Below are positions 39,643-55,384 of a stretch of DNA of 64,000 nucleotides, one piece after another. The stretch's first letter is position 1. The number at the start of each line of letters is the position of its first letter. This stretch comes from an uncultured Brevinematales bacterium (GTDB lineage: Bacteria > Spirochaetota > Brevinematia > DTOW01): the NCBI GenBank assembly GCA_964475465.1, contig CAYYXA010000068.1, positions 23,811 to 87,810 on the forward strand. The letters are read 5' to 3'. The position numbers and the translations under genes were made by a program. The notes beneath the pieces were generated by a model. It made no database searches and was not told the DNA's origin. It was given only the letters and a program-made list of their open reading frames with translations.

Positions 39643-40074
39643 TTAAGCAAGTATTGACATTACTATACCCCTAAGTTCAGATGATAAATTGATCAAAGCC
39701 GCTCTCGTAATATGTTCTCTCAGCAACTTTTCTAACATTTCCCTAAGTCTGGTATCTGCAAACACTATAACCCTTAACTTTTTATCCTTTGATCTCAAAG
39801 AAGACTTTTCGATAACCCTAGCCAAGTTAGATAGCTTCACTACTAAATCCCCTATAAGTTTCTTGTACTCCTCAACCAGTTCATTAGAAAACTCTTTTTC
39901 TAATCTACTTTCCAATTCATCAAGCTTTTTACTTACTTTGTTTATCTCCTCATTCTCAGCTATTGAAGAAAAAATAATTTCTTCAAAGCTTCTTGAGTGA
40001 GTTCCTACGGATTTTTTAGTCTGAAGCCCCCTTCTAGGGTATAACTTATAGTCACCATCTACTCTTATAATCAT
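39643..40074 (-). CDS. YaaR / DUF327 family protein
   Basis: F..I..., ELVEEYKKLI, IVFADTRL.EM and GIVMSI fit the DUF327 pattern. Start set at ATG 40074, since the ORF-track start lies inside the tRNA. Confidence 0.7.
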   Translation of the reverse strand: MIIRVDGDYKLYPRRGLQTKKSVGTHSRSFEEIIFSSIAENEEINKVSKKLDELESRLEKEFSNELVEEYKKLIGDLVVKLSNLARVIEKSSLRSKDKKLRVIVFADTRLREMLEKLLREHITRAALINLSSELRGIVMSILA

Positions 40075-40078
40075 TATT

Positions 40079-40152
40079 CGTGCCTGAGGGGACTTGAACC
40101 CCTGACCACCGGACTCGCATTCCGGTGCTCTATCCACCTGAGCTACAGGCAC
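40079..40152 (-). tRNA. tRNA-Arg(GCG), CCA not encoded
   Basis: Cloverleaf GTGCCTG/CAGGCAC acceptor, GCTC/GAGC D-stem with GG and A20, CCGGA-ATGCGAG-TCCGG anticodon arm, AGGGG-TTCAAGT-CCCCT T-arm, discriminator G followed by AATA. Confidence 0.95.
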
Positions 40153-43595: not shown

Positions 43596-43645
43596 TTGAC
43601 TTGCAAAAAATTCATTATTATTTTAATTATACTGACTGGTCAGTA
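43596..43645 (+). promoter_or_regulatory. Sigma70 promoter plus TetR-type palindromic operator
   Basis: TTGACT-N17-TATTTT (43596-43624) followed by the perfect palindrome TACTGAC-TG-GTCAGTA (43630-43645), 12 nt before the TetR ATG. Confidence 0.75.
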
Positions 43646-43657
43646 AAGAGATCAACC

Positions 43658-44248
43658 ATGGAGCAGACTAAAGAGAGAATAATAAAATCAGCCATCAAGC
43701 TATTCGCTGATAAAGGTTTTCATGAAACTAAAGTTGAGGAAATAGCTACAGAAAGCGGTGTAGCAAAAGGAACGGTATATCTCTACTTTAGAAGCAAAGA
43801 AGAAATAATGATGTCTTGCTTTGAGTTTATATTCTCTAGAGCACTGAAAAATTACGAAATCCCTGACGAACTAAACTTCTACGATAGCATTAAGATGATT
43901 GTTGAAAATAATTTCAAATTTGTAGACGAAAACATGGACTTTTACAGAATGCTCCTCAAAGGGTTATATTCGACAAACAGAGATATAAAGAAGGAAAAGG
44001 TAATTTGTGAAAAAGAACTTTTTGAAATAGCTGTAGGCTCTATGGAAAAAATCATTCTCAAAGGTATCAACGAGGGTAAAATAAAAAAAGATGTCTCACT
44101 AAAGCATCTCGCTGTAACTTTCCTAAACACAATCATATCATCTCTTATAATGATCGTCAACTCAAGAATTAGAGGCTTCAAACTAGATGAAAATGAGTAC
44201 AAAGAAGAAATAATAAATTTCTTAACTGGAGGCATTTATGAAAAGTAA
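43658..44248 (+). CDS. TetR/AcrR family transcriptional regulator
   Basis: KERIIKSAIKLFADKGFHETKVEEIATESGVAKGTVYLYFRSKEE helix-turn-helix. Confidence 0.95.
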   Translation: MEQTKERIIKSAIKLFADKGFHETKVEEIATESGVAKGTVYLYFRSKEEIMMSCFEFIFSRALKNYEIPDELNFYDSIKMIVENNFKFVDENMDFYRMLLKGLYSTNRDIKKEKVICEKELFEIAVGSMEKIILKGINEGKIKKDVSLKHLAVTFLNTIISSLIMIVNSRIRGFKLDENEYKEEIINFLTGGIYEK

Positions 44249-45701
44249 GCTTATAGTTTTAATAATGTTAACTTTTATCATTAACGCTTACTCAATCAGT
44301 GAGGCAAACCAAAGAATTATAATAAGCAATGTTAACGATGCAATAAAAATAGGCCTCCAGAACAATAAAGATCTAAGAAAAAAGGCAATTGAGATAATGT
44401 CTGCAAATGCCAATTTAAAATCGAGTCTAGCAGATTTAATACTACCAAACGTTAGTGCCTCTCTGAGATTCTCGACCTTAGACCCTAAGACATTAGAAAA
44501 CTCCATATCTAAGGTTTCAAGCCTCAGGTTAGAAACAAACGTTATAATGGGATTCACCAACATATCATTTGCAACTGAAGAAAAAACAATCACCAACGCT
44601 TTTTGGGACAATTACTCGTTAGCTATATCAGCAAGCTATAGGATACCTTACTTATTACCTTTTGGCTTGGACATAGGATATAACTCCTATCTACTACAAT
44701 CAAAAAACGTTGAGTTAGCTAAACTACAATATCAAAAAGCACTAAACGATTACATATACAACGTAAAAATTGCCTATTATAACTATCTATTCGCAAAAGA
44801 GTTTGCCAAGGTAGCCGTCGAAGCAGACAAAAGATATCAAGAAAATGTTAAAATAGCAGAGGCAAACTATGCCTCTGGTATATTTTCAGATTTAGAACTT
44901 ATAAGAGCTAGAGTCCAGTTAATAAACAATCAACCGAATCTATACTCAGCACTCAACAATGTGGAAATTCAGAAATTCAATCTACTCACAACCTTGGGCA
45001 TCGAACTTTCAATGATATCCAATGTAGAGATACTAGGTAGCTTTGAGGAAATAAAAAACGAATTCCGTAATCTATCTATCGATCAAGAAGAGTTGAAGAA
45101 AAAGGTATTATCCAACAATCCCGATTTGAAAATTCTTTCAAAATTAGTAGAACTTTCAGGGACATCAAAAAATGTCTCCCTCTCTGCAAATAAACCTACT
45201 CTATCTGCTTTCTTCAACTTTAACTATGATTTCAAGAAAACAAACTCTATGGAAAACGAAAGGCACTGGGTAGATAGCTGGAATGCTGGAATACAAATAA
45301 CTATTCCTATTTCCGAGCTTCTACCGATATCAAAAAGCTACGCAAACATGGAAAATGCCGACTATTCTATAACTAAAGCACGCCTAGACTACGAGAACTT
45401 CCTAAATTTAACGATGAGCCAAATGAATCAGCTTATACTCAAGTTAGAAGAAAACAAAAAGAATATTCTAGCCCAGGAAGCCAACGTCGACCAAGCTAAA
45501 AGATCATTAGACATTGTAACTCAGAGATACTCTCTAGGTAGTGCTACTAGTGTTGATCTGCTTGATGCACAACTAGCATATCAACAAGCAGAAATAAACT
45601 ATCTGAGTTCATGGCTCTCTTACATTGGCAACTTCCTTCTGGCACAAAAACTATCAGGAGAACTAATAAATGAAGGAGGAATATATGAAAGGAAAAACTA
45701 A
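44238..45701 (+). CDS. TolC family outer-membrane efflux channel
   Basis: Signal peptide, AIKIGLQNN.DL, VKIAYYNY, G..S.LEL..A.VQL repeated as GSATSVDLLDAQLAY. Confidence 0.88.
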   Translation: MKSKLIVLIMLTFIINAYSISEANQRIIISNVNDAIKIGLQNNKDLRKKAIEIMSANANLKSSLADLILPNVSASLRFSTLDPKTLENSISKVSSLRLETNVIMGFTNISFATEEKTITNAFWDNYSLAISASYRIPYLLPFGLDIGYNSYLLQSKNVELAKLQYQKALNDYIYNVKIAYYNYLFAKEFAKVAVEADKRYQENVKIAEANYASGIFSDLELIRARVQLINNQPNLYSALNNVEIQKFNLLTTLGIELSMISNVEILGSFEEIKNEFRNLSIDQEELKKKVLSNNPDLKILSKLVELSGTSKNVSLSANKPTLSAFFNFNYDFKKTNSMENERHWVDSWNAGIQITIPISELLPISKSYANMENADYSITKARLDYENFLNLTMSQMNQLILKLEENKKNILAQEANVDQAKRSLDIVTQRYSLGSATSVDLLDAQLAYQQAEINYLSSWLSYIGNFLLAQKLSGELINEGGIYERKN

Positions 45702-46626
45702 AAAAGCAATAATAATTATAACTGCACTAATTGCAATACTCGTAATAGCAAGAATAGCAATAGTAGTAGTTTCTTCTAATAAAGACAATAAGAAAGATTT
45801 TTCCAAAATAAAAAATTTCGTTAACATAACTGTTGTAGGAACAAAAGTCAAAAAGGGAGATATACAAAAGTATATAACCCTCTCAGGTGATATAAAGGGT
45901 ATAAGCGAAGCACAAGTCTTTCCTGACGTGCCTGGCAAAGTAGCCAAAATATCTGTTGTCGAAGGACAGTATGTTAAGAAAAACGAACCTATTATGTATA
46001 TAGATAGATCACTAGTTGGCTACCAATACAATCTATCACCCGTTAGAGCACCTATAGACGGTAGAGTCGGCAGTATAAACGTTTCAGAAGGGCAATTCGT
46101 TTCTCAAACTACTCCCGTAGCCGTAGTCGTTGATAATAGAATAATGGAGATAATACTACTACTCCCAGAAAGTTATATAAGTCAGATAAAAAGAGGAGCT
46201 AAAACAATAGTCGAAGTTCCTTCCTTAGACAATGAGAAATTCATAGGATACGTATACTCATCGGATCTAGTCATAGACAGAGGCACTAGAACATTAAAGA
46301 TAAGAGTTAGAGTCAACAACCCTAGTAGTAAACTCATTTCAGGCATGTACGCAAATGTTAAAATACCTGTAGAAACCGAATATAATACCACATATGTACC
46401 TATAACGTCTATAAGGGAAATAGAAGGTAAAACGTTTGTATACATTTTATCAGAAACAAATATAAGCGACCAAAAACTCTATTATACATCGCTTAGAAGG
46501 GTATATACTGGTGTATCTGATGGTGAAAAAATAGCTGTAAAAGGCGTAAAAGAAGGTGAAATAGTTGTATCTCTAGGAGCCGAATACCTCAAAGATGAAA
46601 TAATAGTAAGAGCAATAATTCAATAG
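45685..46626 (+). CDS. Efflux periplasmic adaptor (membrane fusion protein)
   Basis: TM anchor, VPGKVAKISVVEGQYVKK, VRAPIDGRVG, TRTLKIRV and LISGMYANV; GGAGG SD before ATG 45685. Confidence 0.9.
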   Translation: MKGKTKKAIIIITALIAILVIARIAIVVVSSNKDNKKDFSKIKNFVNITVVGTKVKKGDIQKYITLSGDIKGISEAQVFPDVPGKVAKISVVEGQYVKKNEPIMYIDRSLVGYQYNLSPVRAPIDGRVGSINVSEGQFVSQTTPVAVVVDNRIMEIILLLPESYISQIKRGAKTIVEVPSLDNEKFIGYVYSSDLVIDRGTRTLKIRVRVNNPSSKLISGMYANVKIPVETEYNTTYVPITSIREIEGKTFVYILSETNISDQKLYYTSLRRVYTGVSDGEKIAVKGVKEGEIVVSLGAEYLKDEIIVRAIIQ

Positions 46627-46703: not shown

Positions 46704-47366
46704 TTGAAGAGGCTAGCACGAGTAAAGTATAATTCAGAGGTGTTAACAGTTCATCAGTATAGAAAAATTGGGAAAAAGAAAAAGAGGCTAAGAAGCTGGG
46801 TAGTGGTAGCACTGGCACTAATTTTTTCATCTCTTATTACTTTGGTAACATACGAAATCATAAGAAACATAGAAAGCAAAAAGGTTTACGAGGTATCCCT
46901 AAACAATATAGTAATAAAAGATAAAGAAATGGTTCTGAAAGTTAACTCACTAGAATATCCCTTATCAAACGATATAGAGAAACTCAGGGAATTAGCAAAA
47001 AAATTTGAAATCTCCTACTTCAGCATTTACCACAGCACAGAACTAATAACAAAAGCCTCACTCGTGAATCCCGAAGTGGTAATATTTAACGGCAAAGGTG
47101 AAAAAAACTTAGCCATGAACCTATCAGTAATACTGATCACTAATAACTTAAACATTATAAACTACGGAAATACCATAAAACCATCTAAAAAATCATTCAT
47201 ACTAATAAGAGCACCAATAAATGACGAATATACAAAAAAACTTAGTTCACTTATAGGAATAACCAACATAGTCGTATCGCTAAACTCCGATGTAATACCC
47301 CCAACAACAGCACCAATAATCATAGTCCTAGGTAAAGATTATAACACAACTTACATTTGGCATTAG
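46704..47366 (+). CDS. Membrane protein with LytR C-terminal domain
   Basis: Basic N-terminus and TM helix, then PEVVIFNGKGEKNLA...NYGN and IIIVLGKDY. No LCP catalytic domain is visible. Confidence 0.7.
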   Translation: MKRLARVKYNSEVLTVHQYRKIGKKKKRLRSWVVVALALIFSSLITLVTYEIIRNIESKKVYEVSLNNIVIKDKEMVLKVNSLEYPLSNDIEKLRELAKKFEISYFSIYHSTELITKASLVNPEVVIFNGKGEKNLAMNLSVILITNNLNIINYGNTIKPSKKSFILIRAPINDEYTKKLSSLIGITNIVVSLNSDVIPPTTAPIIIVLGKDYNTTYIWH

Positions 47367-49139: not shown

Positions 49140-50876
49140 TTACTTTTTGCTTCCTAAAGTTGGGAAGAGAATAACTTCTCTTATAGAGTGCGAATTTGTT
49201 AGTATCATTACCAACCTATCGATACCAATTCCCTGCCCTGCCGTTGGCGGTAGTCCATACTCAAGTGCCGTTATAAAATCATCATCTTTCATTTGTGCTT
49301 CCTCATCTCCCATCTTCCTTTCCTTAAGCTGTTCGTCAAACCTCTTACTTTGCTCCTCCGGGTCATTTAACTCAGTATACGCATTTGAAACCTCAAACCC
49401 TGCTATAAAAAGTTCAAATCTTTCAACTAGATCACTATCTTCCCTATGTGTTTTCGCCAAAGGCGAAAGTATTTTAGGAAAGTCAATTACAAAAGTAGGA
49501 TTGATAAAATCTCCTTCTGAAACACGGTCAAATATTTTATCTATAACTTTGGGGTGTGTGAGTCTCTCTTCGTTTATCCCCAATTCCCTAGCAAGTTCCC
49601 TCGCCCTCTTCTCATCAAGGAAAAATTCCTTTCCCTTACCTGTCTTCTCCTTAAGATAATCAAAGTACCTAACCTTCCTAAACGGTGGTGTAAAATCTAT
49701 CTCATATTCACCGAATTCAACTTTATAACTTCCTCTTATTTCCTTAGCTAAGTATGAAAATAGATCCTCAGAAAATTTCATAAGGTCATTGTAATCCCAA
49801 TAGGCAACATAGAATTCCATCATCGTAAACTCAGGGTTATGATGTATATCTATACCCTCATTTCTAAAGTTTTTACCTATCTCGTAAACTCTATTAAAGC
49901 CACCAACAACCAACTTCTTAAGAAATAGTTCAGGCGCTATTCTTAAATAAAGCTGCTCATCAAGAGCATTATGATAAGTAACAAAAGGTTTAGCAGAAGC
50001 ACCACTAGCAATTTGATGAAGTATAGGTGTCTCAACCTCAATGAATCCCATTGAATTAAAGTAATCTCTTATCTTTTGTATTATCCTAGTCCTATTCACA
50101 AACACCTTAGCAACATCAGGGTTAGCTATCAAGTCTAAATATCTTTGTCTATACCTAACCTCAGGATCCTTAATACCATGCCACTTCTCAGGTAACTCAT
50201 GTAAAGATTTTGCTAAAATCTCAAATTTTTCGACTTCTACAGTCAGTTCACCCGTTTTCGTCCTAAACAATCTACCCTTAACGCCCAGTATATCACCAAC
50301 ATCTACGAAATCTTTAAAGAACGTGAATTTCTCTTCTCCAATAACATCAATCTTCACATATATCTGAATTCTACTTTCAGCATCCTTTATATGTGCGAAA
50401 ACAGCCTTACCTTGATCCCTTATAGTAACCACCCTACCAGCCAAAGAAATATGTTCATAATTTGGGTCAATGTCAAAAAGATTACAAACTTCACTTATTT
50501 TCTTAGAAGGGATATTTTCAAGGCTAGGGTCGTATTCCAAAGTCAAAACATCGTTCATTCTCTTCAGTCTACCCTTTACAGTTACAAAATCATTAGGTTT
50601 CACACTTTCAAAATCTTTCAAGAAATCATTCCTAACGAGCACCAAGATACTCTTCTCATCCTCAAGCCTAATTACTATCCCCTCGTCTGTTTTTGAGACT
50701 CTCTTTACAGTACCACCAAGGGCAATAGGAAAATCGTTCGTATCTAGTTCGTACTTTTGCCTAACCTCTGCTATTGAAGACTTAACATCAAATTTGTATG
50801 GGTATGGGTTTATCCCCATCTCTCTCAATTTCCTTATCTTCTCCTTTCTTATCAATGTTGTCTCCCTTTCACTCAT
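49140..50876 (-). CDS. lysS: Lysine--tRNA ligase, class II, with duplicated N-terminal OB-fold
   Basis: RYRQRYLDLI, FIEVETP, YLRIAPEL, FRNEGID..HNPEFT, ERFELF and GLPPTAGQGIGIDRL; extra 92-aa segment at the N-terminus. Confidence 0.96.
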   Translation of the reverse strand: MSERETTLIRKEKIRKLREMGINPYPYKFDVKSSIAEVRQKYELDTNDFPIALGGTVKRVSKTDEGIVIRLEDEKSILVLVRNDFLKDFESVKPNDFVTVKGRLKRMNDVLTLEYDPSLENIPSKKISEVCNLFDIDPNYEHISLAGRVVTIRDQGKAVFAHIKDAESRIQIYVKIDVIGEEKFTFFKDFVDVGDILGVKGRLFRTKTGELTVEVEKFEILAKSLHELPEKWHGIKDPEVRYRQRYLDLIANPDVAKVFVNRTRIIQKIRDYFNSMGFIEVETPILHQIASGASAKPFVTYHNALDEQLYLRIAPELFLKKLVVGGFNRVYEIGKNFRNEGIDIHHNPEFTMMEFYVAYWDYNDLMKFSEDLFSYLAKEIRGSYKVEFGEYEIDFTPPFRKVRYFDYLKEKTGKGKEFFLDEKRARELARELGINEERLTHPKVIDKIFDRVSEGDFINPTFVIDFPKILSPLAKTHREDSDLVERFELFIAGFEVSNAYTELNDPEEQSKRFDEQLKERKMGDEEAQMKDDDFITALEYGLPPTAGQGIGIDRLVMILTNSHSIREVILFPTLGSKK

Positions 50877-53818: not shown

Positions 53819-55384
53819 ATGATAACTTTTAAGTGTATGAAAAGTTTAAAAAAATCAACAATTCTCCTTTCCCTGCTTTTAGTAGCCTTTCCTTTATATG
53901 CTCAAATAGGAATATCTTCAAAATACCTAGAAGTTATAATGGACAACGCAAGTGGGAGATTTTTTGTTAAAACGCTAATAGGTGATCCTGACAACCCTAA
54001 TGATGATAAAAAGATAATTCTTTTCGACAAAATTCCACCTACAAGTTACCCCACACTATTCGTCGATGGTGATGGATTTGAGGTAGGCACAGAAGATGGA
54101 TACTTTGAGAATAGACCTTCAATTTCAAAAAACAAATTAACATGGGCATGGAGACCTAACAAGTACAGTAAAATAAAACTAATCCAGATAGTAGAAATTG
54201 TTACGAATATATTCACATTAAGAGATGATATCCTAAGAATAACATTTCTAGTTGTTAACGAAGATATTAAAGAACACGATGTTAACATCAGATTCATTTT
54301 TGATACTGTCCTAGGTGAATCGGAAAAAGCTCCATTTTTCATTCCTCCTTATGGCAAGATAGACAAAGAAACAGTCTTCTACGAAAACAACATGCCCACA
54401 ATTTGGTACTCATTTGATAAAATCGATAAACCTAAAATAAAAACGATGGGAATCTTATCAGGGTTAGAAGACGTAACAACTCCATCAATGGTAGTATTTG
54501 CTAACTGGAGAAAACTTAGCAAAACAAAATGGGATTATATACCTGAAGTCGGTTCAAGCTTCAGTGAGGGAATATTCGGCGTAAAAGATACAGCAGTAGC
54601 AGTATACTTTAAAAAGACAAGGCTTAAACCCCAAGAGATAGCAATATACTCAACAATGTATGGACTTTTTGGCGATACCATAAAAAAGATAGGAAACGTT
54701 TCTTTTTCCCTCTCCGTTCCTGAAATCGTCAAAAGCTTCCCCATAACAGTTTCTCTAACTGTAGAAAACAAAAGTCCAATAAAACTAAAAGACATCATAG
54801 CTAAGCTAATAATAGATACTAACACATTTTATACATCAAACTACATATTTACTCTATCAAACCTACCTAACGAGGATTATGCCTCTTTTTCGTGGAACAT
54901 ATTTCCCATAGGACAAGTTCAAGACGGTGAATATATGGCAAAAGTGTCATTTGAAGCTCTAGCTCTTTCTACCAACTTGTATGAGGAAATAAGTAAAAAG
55001 TTCACTGTTAGCTCAAGAACCCAAGAACAGGTAAAAACAGAAAATTTACAAGAAATAGGAATAAAACAAACAAAAATCTCAACAAATTACCAACTAGCTG
55101 AAACAAATTTTATTTTCGTTACCAATGTAGTAATGATAACTAATACAGTCACAGTAACCAACGAACTTGAAGATTGGAGTTACAAGGTCGGAGTAAAAAA
55201 GATAAACACACTGCTGGAAATGTTAAACGAAGAACTAGATAACTTAATCACAACATACCATTTAGCCACCTCAGAAGAAAATAAAAAAATAATTCAAGAA
55301 AAAATCAACCTAATAAAAAAACAAATAGAAATCGAGAAATCAAAAATAAAAGCTAAAGAACAAAAAGTTACCAATACCAAATAG
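53819..55384 (+). CDS. Exported hypothetical protein: beta-rich N-domain, Ig-like domain, TN-repeat linker, C-terminal coiled coil
   Basis: AGGAG SD, signal peptide ending PLYA-Q, beta-rich body, linker STNYQLAETNFIFVTNVVMITNTVTVTN and a helical tail. Confidence 0.8.
   Translation: MITFKCMKSLKKSTILLSLLLVAFPLYAQIGISSKYLEVIMDNASGRFFVKTLIGDPDNPNDDKKIILFDKIPPTSYPTLFVDGDGFEVGTEDGYFENRPSISKNKLTWAWRPNKYSKIKLIQIVEIVTNIFTLRDDILRITFLVVNEDIKEHDVNIRFIFDTVLGESEKAPFFIPPYGKIDKETVFYENNMPTIWYSFDKIDKPKIKTMGILSGLEDVTTPSMVVFANWRKLSKTKWDYIPEVGSSFSEGIFGVKDTAVAVYFKKTRLKPQEIAIYSTMYGLFGDTIKKIGNVSFSLSVPEIVKSFPITVSLTVENKSPIKLKDIIAKLIIDTNTFYTSNYIFTLSNLPNEDYASFSWNIFPIGQVQDGEYMAKVSFEALALSTNLYEEISKKFTVSSRTQEQVKTENLQEIGIKQTKISTNYQLAETNFIFVTNVVMITNTVTVTNELEDWSYKVGVKKINTLLEMLNEELDNLITTYHLATSEENKKIIQEKINLIKKQIEIEKSKIKAKEQKVTNTK

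Follow-up and report, generated by a model that had tools for sequence, protein, structure and literature searches.

Bacterial aminoacyl-tRNA synthetases are commonly seen as pared-down enzymes, appended tRNA-binding modules being considered mostly eukaryotic. Borrelia and Treponema use a class I lysyl-tRNA synthetase (LysRS). The canonical class IIb LysRSs (G. stearothermophilus, 3a74 and 3e9h; E. coli, 1bbu and 1e1o) have an N-terminal helix, an OB domain carrying Arg, Phe and Gln, and a class II core, and all three are matched by the LysRS encoded in the 64,000-nucleotide stretch of DNA from an uncultured Brevinematales bacterium that was analysed here (the window). The canonical enzymes lack, however, the helix-plus-OB unit of some 92 residues that the window enzyme has between its N-terminal helix and its canonical OB domain. 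The features are listed below; residue n of the protein corresponds to positions 50876-3n+1 to 50876-3(n-1).

49140..50876, minus strand: lysS, class II (IIb) lysyl-tRNA synthetase, an open reading frame of 578 aa plus stop (TIGR00499, NF001756, PF00152)
50784..50876, minus strand: residues 1-31, canonical LysRS N-terminal helix and PYPYKF motif (aligned to solved LysRS chains)
50508..50783, minus strand: OB1, residues 32-123, diverged extra copy (repeat, conservation, model, Foldseek, PF01336, dN/dS)
50214..50507, minus strand: OB2, residues 124-221, assigned as the canonical anticodon-binding OB domain (PF01336, solved structures, invariant columns, hhalign)
49158..50165, minus strand: residues 238-573, class II catalytic core (PF00152, 3a74 alignment)

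The whole protein scores 634.9 bits against TIGR00499 (lysS_bact; cutoff 427.6) and 669.5 bits against NF001756 (cutoff 468), and PF00152 spans residues 238-573 (E = 4.8e-95), showing that the class II core of the Asp/Asn/Lys subclass is present. Residues 1-31 align with residues 10-40 of 3a74 and 18-56 of 6o3f, and the predicted structure has a helix at 3-19. Further along, residues 140-574 align with residues 56-490 of 3a74 (E = 2e-153), with conservation of catalytic motif regions, among them FRNEG (337-341) and GIGIDR (549-554). By these sequence models the window protein is predicted to be a functional class II LysRS; the AspRS, AsnRS, EpmA and LysX models all fell under their cutoffs for it. 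Two related proteins were considered and rejected. The EF-P lysyl ligase paralogue EpmA/PoxA (GenX) is represented by TIGR00462, which gives 233.6 against a cutoff of 286.9; EpmA consists of the catalytic core and lacks an anticodon-binding domain, and the window protein has two OB domains. For LysX, an MprF-LysRS fusion that carries a lysyl-phosphatidylglycerol synthase domain, NF002821 reaches 492 bits where 742 are required; the LysRS half alone is matched, and the window protein has no additional Pfam domain. No tRNA-Lys gene was found within the window or in the lysS loci examined.

The original prediction had this LysRS carrying a tandem duplication of its anticodon-binding OB domain, with residues 32-123 repeated at an offset of 92 as residues 124-221, to give 578 aa as against about 500 for a typical LysS. 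The length holds: the reading frame has 578 codons before the stop, and LysS proteins of other phyla are typically 477-520 aa. So does the repeat. At a fixed offset of 92, which is the only one between 80 and 104 with a positive BLOSUM62 sum, the two copies agree at 15 of 92 positions; indels account for the secondary peaks at 93, 99 and 101. Gapped Smith-Waterman comparison of residues 28-127 with residues 121-232 gives a score of 82, against 28.2 +/- 5.1 for shuffled sequences (z = 10.5; none of 2000 shuffles reaches 82), and hhalign aligns the OB1 and OB2 family profiles over 78 columns at 31% identity (probability 94.4%, E = 8.5e-8). BLASTP with default heuristics finds no match between OB1 and OB2; with the rigorous alignment positive, this means that the repeat is real but weak, at about 25-30% identity. 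Pfam PF01336 likewise matches two stretches of the protein. These comparisons confirm two tandem units, each a short helix followed by an OB barrel, at residues 32-123 and 124-221; together (residues 32-221) they occupy exactly positions 50214-50783. A recent duplication was rejected: repeats at the DNA level amount to stretches of 23-26 nt at 73-78% identity, and the duplication is therefore not recent.

Is OB1 a copy of the enzyme's own OB domain, or did it come from elsewhere? Sequence comparison marks it as homologous to the LysRS anticodon-binding domain, but its source could have been a separate LysRS or AsxRS gene, or some other PF01336-type OB protein, captured by fusion. On this question hhalign separates poorly, since OB1 fits its own OB2 (P = 2e-7) and the canonical LysRS OB domains (P = 2.5e-8) roughly equally well. 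The OB1 profile also matches archaeal RPA14, its best PDB match at a marginal E of 0.018, and long multi-OB PF01336 repeat proteins. The latter, however, match by adding up many weak stretches, and pairwise scores favour the clade's own OB2 (mean Smith-Waterman score 51) over canonical OB domains from other phyla (35, with 26 for shuffled sequences). Moreover, the duplicated unit is not the barrel alone: both copies include the short helix ahead of it, which ends Y/F-E/D-x-D-P (YExDP vs FDxDP), both have the strand-4 motif VKGRLxR, and at spacings of 297 and 303 nt the DNA of the copies shows weak similarity in register. Capture therefore appears improbable, and duplication within the gene is the reading followed below. 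A profile HMM search of 1.84 billion representatives with OB1 recovered only Aquificae-type LysRS N-terminal fragments and the multi-OB repeat proteins; full-length double-OB enzymes were absent, presumably because they lie in clusters with other representatives, and the search is uninformative on distribution. Two word-indexed searches, one started from a divergent fragment and the other from the OB1 profile, recovered almost nothing and missed already-known relatives as well.

Which of the two copies reads the anticodon? The best PF01336 stretch of the protein, 144-221, falls in OB2, the alignments to all solved LysRS chains begin near residue 140, and hhalign of OB2 against canonical OB domains gives E = 4.7e-45. 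OB2 carries R148, R153, G156, K157, F160, I170/Q171 and G209/E210, all invariant across a 15-sequence family alignment except I170, which is nearly so. The OB1 counterparts are T56, S61, D64, E65, V68 and I77/L78, so that the anticodon-reading R148/F160/Q171 of OB2 become T56/V68/L78. This alignment bears out the earlier observation that the second copy keeps the R..GK..F, IQ and GE pattern and that the first has lost it. It supports the assignment of OB2 as the probable canonical anticodon reader of LysRS, and OB1 as a domain without the anticodon-reading residues.

OB1 is confidently predicted to be a five-stranded OB barrel in which a helix separates strands 3 and 4. In the full-length AlphaFold model it comprises a helix (35-42), strands 50-63, 66-72 and 76-82, a second helix (83-89) and strands 97-107 and 110-115, with pLDDT 81-93; modelled alone, it gives a barrel of pLDDT > 90 with elements E22-35, E39-45, E49-55, H56-62, E70-80 and E83-88. 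Foldseek searches with the OB1 model return as top matches LysRS N-domains (1bbw, 3e9h, PfKRS, human) and the OB domains of RPA32 and Stn1, with probability 1.00 and TMq 0.5-0.6 for the LysRS N-domains and RPA32. The models thus agree with the expectation that the insert folds as an OB domain. Taken alone, OB1 scores 23.3 bits against PF01336 (E = 6.4e-5), short of the cutoff of 27; in the family, 9 of 13 OB1 sequences match at E <= 1 (best E = 1.1e-5) and none was seen at the cutoff. OB1 thus lies just under the Pfam threshold and is missed by standard annotation. PF01588 (tRNA_bind) had no match at E <= 1 in the whole protein or in the 13 OB1 sequences.

Eight OB1 residues are invariant in 15 sequences from two phyla: K58, R59, S61, R70, G102, L104, R106 and L111. 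The four basic ones (K58, R59, R70, R106) are placed by the alignment on strands 1, 2 and 4 and align beside the anticodon-contact positions of OB2. OB1 is clearly under purifying selection, with dN/dS of 0.11-0.16; OB2 is at about 0.06 and the catalytic core at 0.02. Even so, no other part of the protein evolves as fast as OB1 (dN/dS 2-7x that of the other domains), its identity between the two phyla is about 33% as against 57% for OB2, and in the Aquificaceae it has no helix segment between strands 3 and 4, as would be seen if OB1 were a functionless relic of the duplication, tolerated and slowly decaying. The purifying selection itself, the eight invariant residues and the confident predicted fold all argue against a relic, as does its retention: OB1 is lost from none of the intact full-length members, whether among the 120 homologue clusters listed or in 10 complete double-OB genome loci, and the short or broken forms seen are all partial, contig-end or apparently frameshifted fragments. 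We consider decay highly improbable.

A maintained OB1 could serve as a structural or protein-protein module, stabilizing the N-terminal domain or dimer or acting as a docking site, with the invariant basic residues engaged in salt bridges. RPA14 is mainly a protein-protein interaction OB. It is the best PDB match of the OB1 profile, and RPA32 and Stn1, among the top Foldseek matches, are OBs that work partly by protein contacts. The net charge of OB1 is about neutral (-4 to +3), its anticodon-reading triad is gone, and the OB1-OB2 linker is confidently modelled (pLDDT about 90), which would suggest a rigid tandem unit, the inter-domain geometry of this full-length model being unreliable (pTM 0.51, from a 15-sequence alignment). 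The RPA14 match is marginal, however; OB2, which is established as an RNA binder, is just as close to neutral and no less basic; and the invariant residues are mostly Lys or Arg adjoining, in the alignment, the anticodon-contact positions of OB2. A structural or protein-protein role is possible but rather unlikely.

The double-OB layout is not a one-off, and comparison lends no support to reading it as a peculiarity of this genome. Among the matches listed, 119 of 120 homologue clusters are full-length enzymes of 562-613 aa sharing an architecture of ~570 aa, and the remaining one is a 466-aa partial. Their sources are MAGs of hot-spring Brevinematia/Spirochaetota and members of the Aquificaceae (Hydrogenobacter, Thermocrinis, Hydrogenivirga and Aquifex MAGs). 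Misassembly or faulty gene calling as the origin of the extra length is thereby left with a negligible chance, and nothing that we found speaks for it. The same architecture recurs in > 100 independent protein clusters; the contigs that carry it include one of 1.75 Mb from the named isolate Hydrogenivirga caldilitoris, one of 1.37 Mb from the named isolate Thermocrinis minervae and a syntenic 1.5-Mb JGI contig; and in the window the reading frame is uninterrupted and begins with the canonical LysRS helix.

On a shared 427-column core from which OB1 was left out, the double-OB clade and both of its subclades have neighbor-joining bootstrap support of 100/100. A single clade implies that the duplication happened once, long ago, and that transfer between phyla came afterwards, and its occurrence in Aquificaceae and in hot-spring Brevinematia points to horizontal acquisition by one lineage or both. 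Judged from its sequence, the window enzyme is an Aquificaceae-type class II LysRS in a spirochaete lineage, and horizontal transfer is the relevant story. The layout is standard throughout the clade and confined to that clade in two lineages. It had been considered that the architecture might already be a widespread, annotated LysS variant. Widespread it is among the listed clusters, which include cultured Aquificaceae, but it belongs to one clade in two lineages and nothing that we found flags it as a variant: the Aquificaceae members are annotated as plain lysine--tRNA ligase. We found no description of a double-OB LysRS in the literature searched, although an earlier one is possible, and no solved LysRS chain covering OB1. 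The double-OB enzyme is thus an overlooked natural variant.

A suggestion that the extra domain is a thermal adaptation fared less well. All double-OB carriers seen are from hot environments, the gene is present in hot-springs metagenome runs, and the IVYWREL fraction of the proteins encoded in the window is 0.4375, which we take to correspond to roughly 75 C by the Zeldovich relation. On the other hand, three sampled MAG loci labelled Thermotogae or Mesoaciditoga have a LysRS of canonical length, in a genome scan made by the pattern NPYPY[KR]F[ED] alone and hence taxonomically biased. The double OB is therefore not needed for thermophily as such, and the data show no evident temperature-related benefit; the suggestion retains weak support from the habitats.

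The account we propose is as follows. The N-terminal anticodon-binding unit, a short helix plus five-stranded OB barrel of about 92-99 aa, underwent a single ancient tandem duplication. OB2, the copy downstream, would still read the tRNA-Lys anticodon through the class IIb Arg/Phe/Gln residues. The upstream copy, OB1, lying between the canonical N-terminal helix and OB2, has diverged and lost its base-reading residues, but is retained under purifying selection as a folded barrel with four invariant basic residues. The most likely role of OB1, we infer, is auxiliary non-specific tRNA binding: it may act in cis as a sequence-independent module that binds and positions tRNA and raises affinity for tRNA-Lys, from which a kinetic benefit would be expected. 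In OB proteins, strands 1, 2 and 4 are usually part of the ligand-binding face. We count the invariant K58/R59/R70/R106 and the dN/dS of 0.11-0.16 for RNA binding by OB1, and the near-neutral net charge, the loss of base-contacting residues and the RPA14 profile match against it. Taken as a whole, the account (a duplicated LysRS OB, OB2 as reader, OB1 as auxiliary tRNA binder, one clade with transfer) has in our judgement an even chance of being right. More tentatively, and with some doubt, OB1 might be a second RNA site that has switched from the anticodon bases to the stem backbone or elbow of tRNA-Lys by way of K58/R59/R70/R106. Such a two-point capture would be new among solved class IIb synthetases, and might be the reason why the gene spread across unrelated hot-spring phyla, displacing the resident LysRS.

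An OB duplication that selection maintains throughout a clade of bacterial LysRSs would exemplify how a domain of a synthetase is copied in nature and given a new use. The double-OB clade also appears to mark cross-phylum transfer of an essential translation gene among hot-spring bacteria, and it exposes a blind spot of routine annotation, the extra domain scoring just below the Pfam threshold. The finding offers structural and kinetic work a defined target rather than opening a long-standing question.

Among known systems, the Aquificaceae LysRSs have the double OB in common with the window enzyme. Over 96-99% of the length they are 57-61% identical to it, and their invariant OB1 residues are identical to those of the window enzyme, but they belong to another phylum and their OB1 is 5-7 residues shorter, with most of the strand 3-4 helix missing. 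Canonical LysRSs are typically 477-520 aa long, against 562-594 aa for the double-OB enzymes of the genome loci compared. The tandem OB arrays of RPA and Stn1 offer a likeness at the level of fold only (11-21% identity): Foldseek pairs the OB1 model with RPA32 and Stn1 (E about 1e-4), the profile match to RPA14 is weak, and two tandem OBs are RPA-like, yet those proteins bind single-stranded DNA whereas OB1 sits in a tRNA synthetase, and the likeness is no pointer to DNA binding. For function, an analogy would be with the N-terminal extension of eukaryotic LysRS or with appended domains of the Trbp111 type. The eukaryotic extension is a lysine-rich helical segment with no OB barrel and is unrelated in sequence to OB1. 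It reportedly binds tRNA (work ascribed to Francin and colleagues, 2002), and the proposed logic is the same, an appended module that adds non-specific tRNA affinity in cis, the role of OB1 being the inferred one. Trbp111 was described in Aquifex, a lineage with double-OB LysRS. Like OB1, the Trbp111/EMAPII/Arc1p domains are OB modules; they add structure-specific tRNA binding to synthetases, either free-standing, as in Aquifex, or appended to MetRS and others. They are, however, of the PF01588 type, whereas the sole family signal of OB1 is PF01336, the anticodon-binding type of synthetases, so that OB1 would have originated by duplication of a LysRS module rather than by recruitment of a Trbp111-type domain.

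The lysS gene of this Brevinematales bacterium encodes a class II lysyl-tRNA synthetase (LysRS) with two OB-folds, OB1 (residues 32-123) and OB2 (residues 124-221), corresponding exactly to 50214-50783, where the original prediction had placed a 92-aa tandem duplication. The protein passes the NCBI lysine-specific equivalog TIGR00499 (634.9 bits; cutoff 427.6), the alignment being confined to residues 140-576. The features of the gene and its surroundings are as follows.

49140-50876, minus strand: lysS, a long open reading frame of 578 aa
LysRS residues 238-573, minus strand: class II core (PF00152)
LysRS residues 144-221, minus strand: the better of two stretches matching the synthetase-type OB fold PF01336
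Downstream of lysS: class III aminotransferase
Beside lysS, divergently transcribed: pullulanase-like glycosidase
Beside lysS: undecaprenyl-diphosphatase and MazG
43601-46626, plus strand: TetR regulator, OEP outer-membrane efflux protein and HlyD-type membrane-fusion protein in a row

These neighbours, annotated at the Pfam level, are ordinary genes, and a 1.5-Mb JGI contig shows synteny with the arrangement; at the edge of the related locus there, the OEP and membrane-fusion genes recur. The TetR-OEP-HlyD row is apparently an efflux operon. Neither a 521-aa ORF (53819-55384, plus strand), which lies 3' of the pullulanase-like gene and on the same strand, nor a 220-aa ORF (46704-47366, plus strand) matched a Pfam family at E <= 1e-5; a relative's contig has 517-aa and 208-aa gene calls at the matching positions. 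The sole RNA gene detected in the window is a tRNA-Arg(GCG) (40079-40152, minus strand), and a mechanical 169-aa ORF overlapping it (39643-40152) is probably no gene. GC content is ~33-38%. GC skew is negative in 30 of 32 2-kb windows (cumulative -5.4) and does not switch across positions 1-64000, so that the plus strand looks like the lagging strand throughout.

The repeat is old and weak, since BLASTP of copy 1 against copy 2 misses it. Aligned without gaps at an offset of 92, the copies are identical at 15 of 92 positions, and among offsets 80-104 the BLOSUM62 sum is positive at this one only, the offset first proposed. Smith-Waterman with gaps, applied to residues 28-127 and 121-232, gives a score of 82, a value reached by none of 2000 shuffles (28.2 +/- 5.1; z = 10.5), and hhalign joins profiles of the two copies (13 homologues each) over 78 columns with a probability of 94.4% and E = 8.5e-8. 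These scores bear out a tandem OB repeat. What is repeated is a short helix together with the barrel: copy 1 reads SIAEVRQKYELD...VKGRLKR and copy 2 KISEVCNLFDIDP...VKGRLFR. At the DNA level the traces of the repeat are limited to 23-26-nt matches of 73-78% identity, whose spacings, 297 and 303 nt, keep register with the repeat in the protein.

Is the extra domain peculiar to this genome? The best 120 homologue clusters (57-92% identity, 96-100% coverage) are all 562-613 aa long save one 466-aa sequence annotated as partial. One group comprises Brevinematia, Brevinematales and Spirochaetota MAGs (66-92% identity) and a second Aquificota (57-61%), among them Hydrogenivirga caldilitoris, Hydrogenobacter hydrogenophilus and Thermocrinis minervae, so the listed clusters of both phyla have the architecture. 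Together with the syntenic 1.5-Mb contig, they exclude an artefact as its source. When GTDB species genomes were scanned for lysS loci with a limiting sequence pattern and the ORFs then measured, 12 double-OB-type loci emerged (one Spirochaetes MAG and 11 Aquifex, Aquificaceae or Aquificota MAGs), 10 of them with complete ORFs of 567-594 aa. More than 60 loci in other phyla, including Fidelibacterota, WOR-3, Calditrichota, Fibrobacterota, Thermotogae and several archaea, encode 477-520-aa enzymes, to whose N-helix and single canonical OB the N-helix plus OB1 of the query aligns at ~30-37% identity. None of the solved LysRS chains aligned covers OB1.

The double OB is therefore the norm for an enzyme clade common to Aquificaceae and hot-spring Brevinematia. 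As to whether it is a widespread annotated variant, it is already public as plain LysS but is confined to that clade. Source annotations of the homologues say lysine--tRNA ligase or lysyl-tRNA synthetase and nothing more, probably because OB1 alone scores 23.3 bits with PF01336, below the gathering cutoff of 27. Full-text literature searches returned no description of a duplicated OB domain in LysRS, although classic comparative papers may hold an earlier notice; the duplication is real and well-defined, and apparently undescribed.

Two metagenomic N-terminal fragments of Aquificae-type LysRS, P0121 (173 aa) and P0124 (134 aa), run into unrelated sequence (GRGDNPSPYGESPV... and NTTLSQSQKRFL, respectively) that begins shortly after, or within, the start of OB2; they seem to be gene calls with a frameshift or truncation rather than free-standing OB1 proteins. 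The OB1 profile also matches very long metagenomic proteins (P0123, P0126, P0128, P0129, P0132 and P0133; 679-2423 aa) built of 4-9 repeated PF01336-type OB domains, P0128 having atrophied bacterial Ig domains as well.

On a neighbor-joining tree of 427 columns from the shared OB2 and catalytic core (OB1 excluded), the 25 double-OB sequences all fall into one clade, made up of reciprocally monophyletic Brevinematia-type and Aquificaceae-type subclades; the clade and each subclade have 100/100 bootstrap support. The window's genome, of Spirochaetota (Brevinematia) lineage, thus has an Aquificaceae-type class II LysRS (49140-50876, considered with loci L001-L012 and L081), which points to horizontal movement of an essential translation gene from one phylum of hot-spring bacteria to another. 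From these sequences the simplest history would be a single duplication, then transfer between the two phyla in either direction. OB1 might instead have been captured from another LysRS-type OB, and profile comparison does not separate this from internal duplication. However, the mean Smith-Waterman score of OB1 is 51 against its own clade's OB2 and 35 against canonical OBs elsewhere (shuffled, 26), and the helix preceding the barrel was duplicated along with it; both favor an internal tandem duplication.

For the full LysRS, AlphaFold had a shallow alignment of 15 sequences to work from and gave residues 31-130 pLDDT values of 81-93. The OB1 elements, which match those of copy 2 one for one, are:

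Residues 35-42: helix
Residues 50-63, 66-72 and 76-82: strands
Residues 83-89: helix
Residues 97-107 and 110-115: strands

Inter-domain geometry is not trusted because the catalytic core is poorly modelled and the pTM is 0.51. Modelled alone, OB1 has a mean pLDDT of 83.7, with the barrel above 90. Its Foldseek matches in the PDB are the LysRS N-domains of E. coli LysS (1bbw), G. stearothermophilus, Plasmodium, M. tuberculosis and human, and also the RPA32 and Stn1 OB domains, each with a probability of 1.00 and a TMq of 0.5-0.6. Model and matches argue that the insert folds as an OB domain, as originally supposed. Aquificaceae copies of OB1 lack 5-7 residues, most of the strand 3-4 helix (columns ~88-100 of family alignment A1; window residues 83-96), which Brevinematia-type copies retain; the extra barrel has thus been trimmed differently in the two lineages.

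OB2 matches canonical LysRS OB domains (hhalign E = 4.7e-45) and in the 15-sequence family alignment has invariant R148, R153, G156, K157, F160, Q171 and FRTxTGELT loop. In class IIb synthetase-tRNA complexes, recognition of the central anticodon base falls to the Arg, Phe and Gln of strands 1-3. R148, F160 and Q171 are invariant, whereas their OB1 counterparts T56, V68 and L78 vary across the family, in agreement with the prediction that only copy 2 keeps the anticodon-reading pattern. The invariant set of OB1 is K58, R59, S61, R70, G102, L104, R106 and L111.

Between-phyla identity, and dN/dS for the window LysRS versus its 92%-identical relatives
OB1: 33%; dN/dS 0.11-0.16
OB2: 57%; dN/dS about 0.06
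Catalytic core: 66%; dN/dS 0.02

By these measures OB1 is the least constrained part of LysRS, yet is clearly maintained by selection. That it is a neutral relic is unlikely, given its dN/dS and its universal retention.

The proposal of a thermal adaptation found weak support. The gene is present in several runs labelled hot-springs metagenome, and the window's predicted proteins have an IVYWREL fraction of 0.4375, which by the Zeldovich relation corresponds to about 75 C; this composition suggests a thermophile. Aquificaceae are thermophiles. The extra OB thus correlates with two hot-spring lineages, but loci from MAGs labelled Thermotogae or Mesoaciditoga in the pattern-limited scan have canonical LysRS, as does G. 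stearothermophilus (3a74, 493 aa), so it is not a general requirement of high-temperature life.

As modelled, OB1 is an additional, folded OB barrel kept by selection, without base-reading residues and with four invariant Lys/Arg. The surface these occupy would be the one with which OB folds usually bind their ligands, and they may touch the RNA backbone; OB1 would in that case contribute, in cis, to the affinity for tRNA-Lys or its positioning, independently of sequence. The main rival, a structural or protein-interaction module, draws support from its near-zero net charge (the same as that of OB2) and its marginal likeness to RPA14 and RPA32, but we consider it rather improbable. We tentatively regard OB1 as an auxiliary, sequence-independent tRNA-binding or positioning module. 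PF01588 had no match in the window LysRS or the OB1 sequences. Such a role would follow the same logic as the N-terminal extension of eukaryotic LysRS and Trbp111-type appended domains, although OB1 lies outside both of those families.
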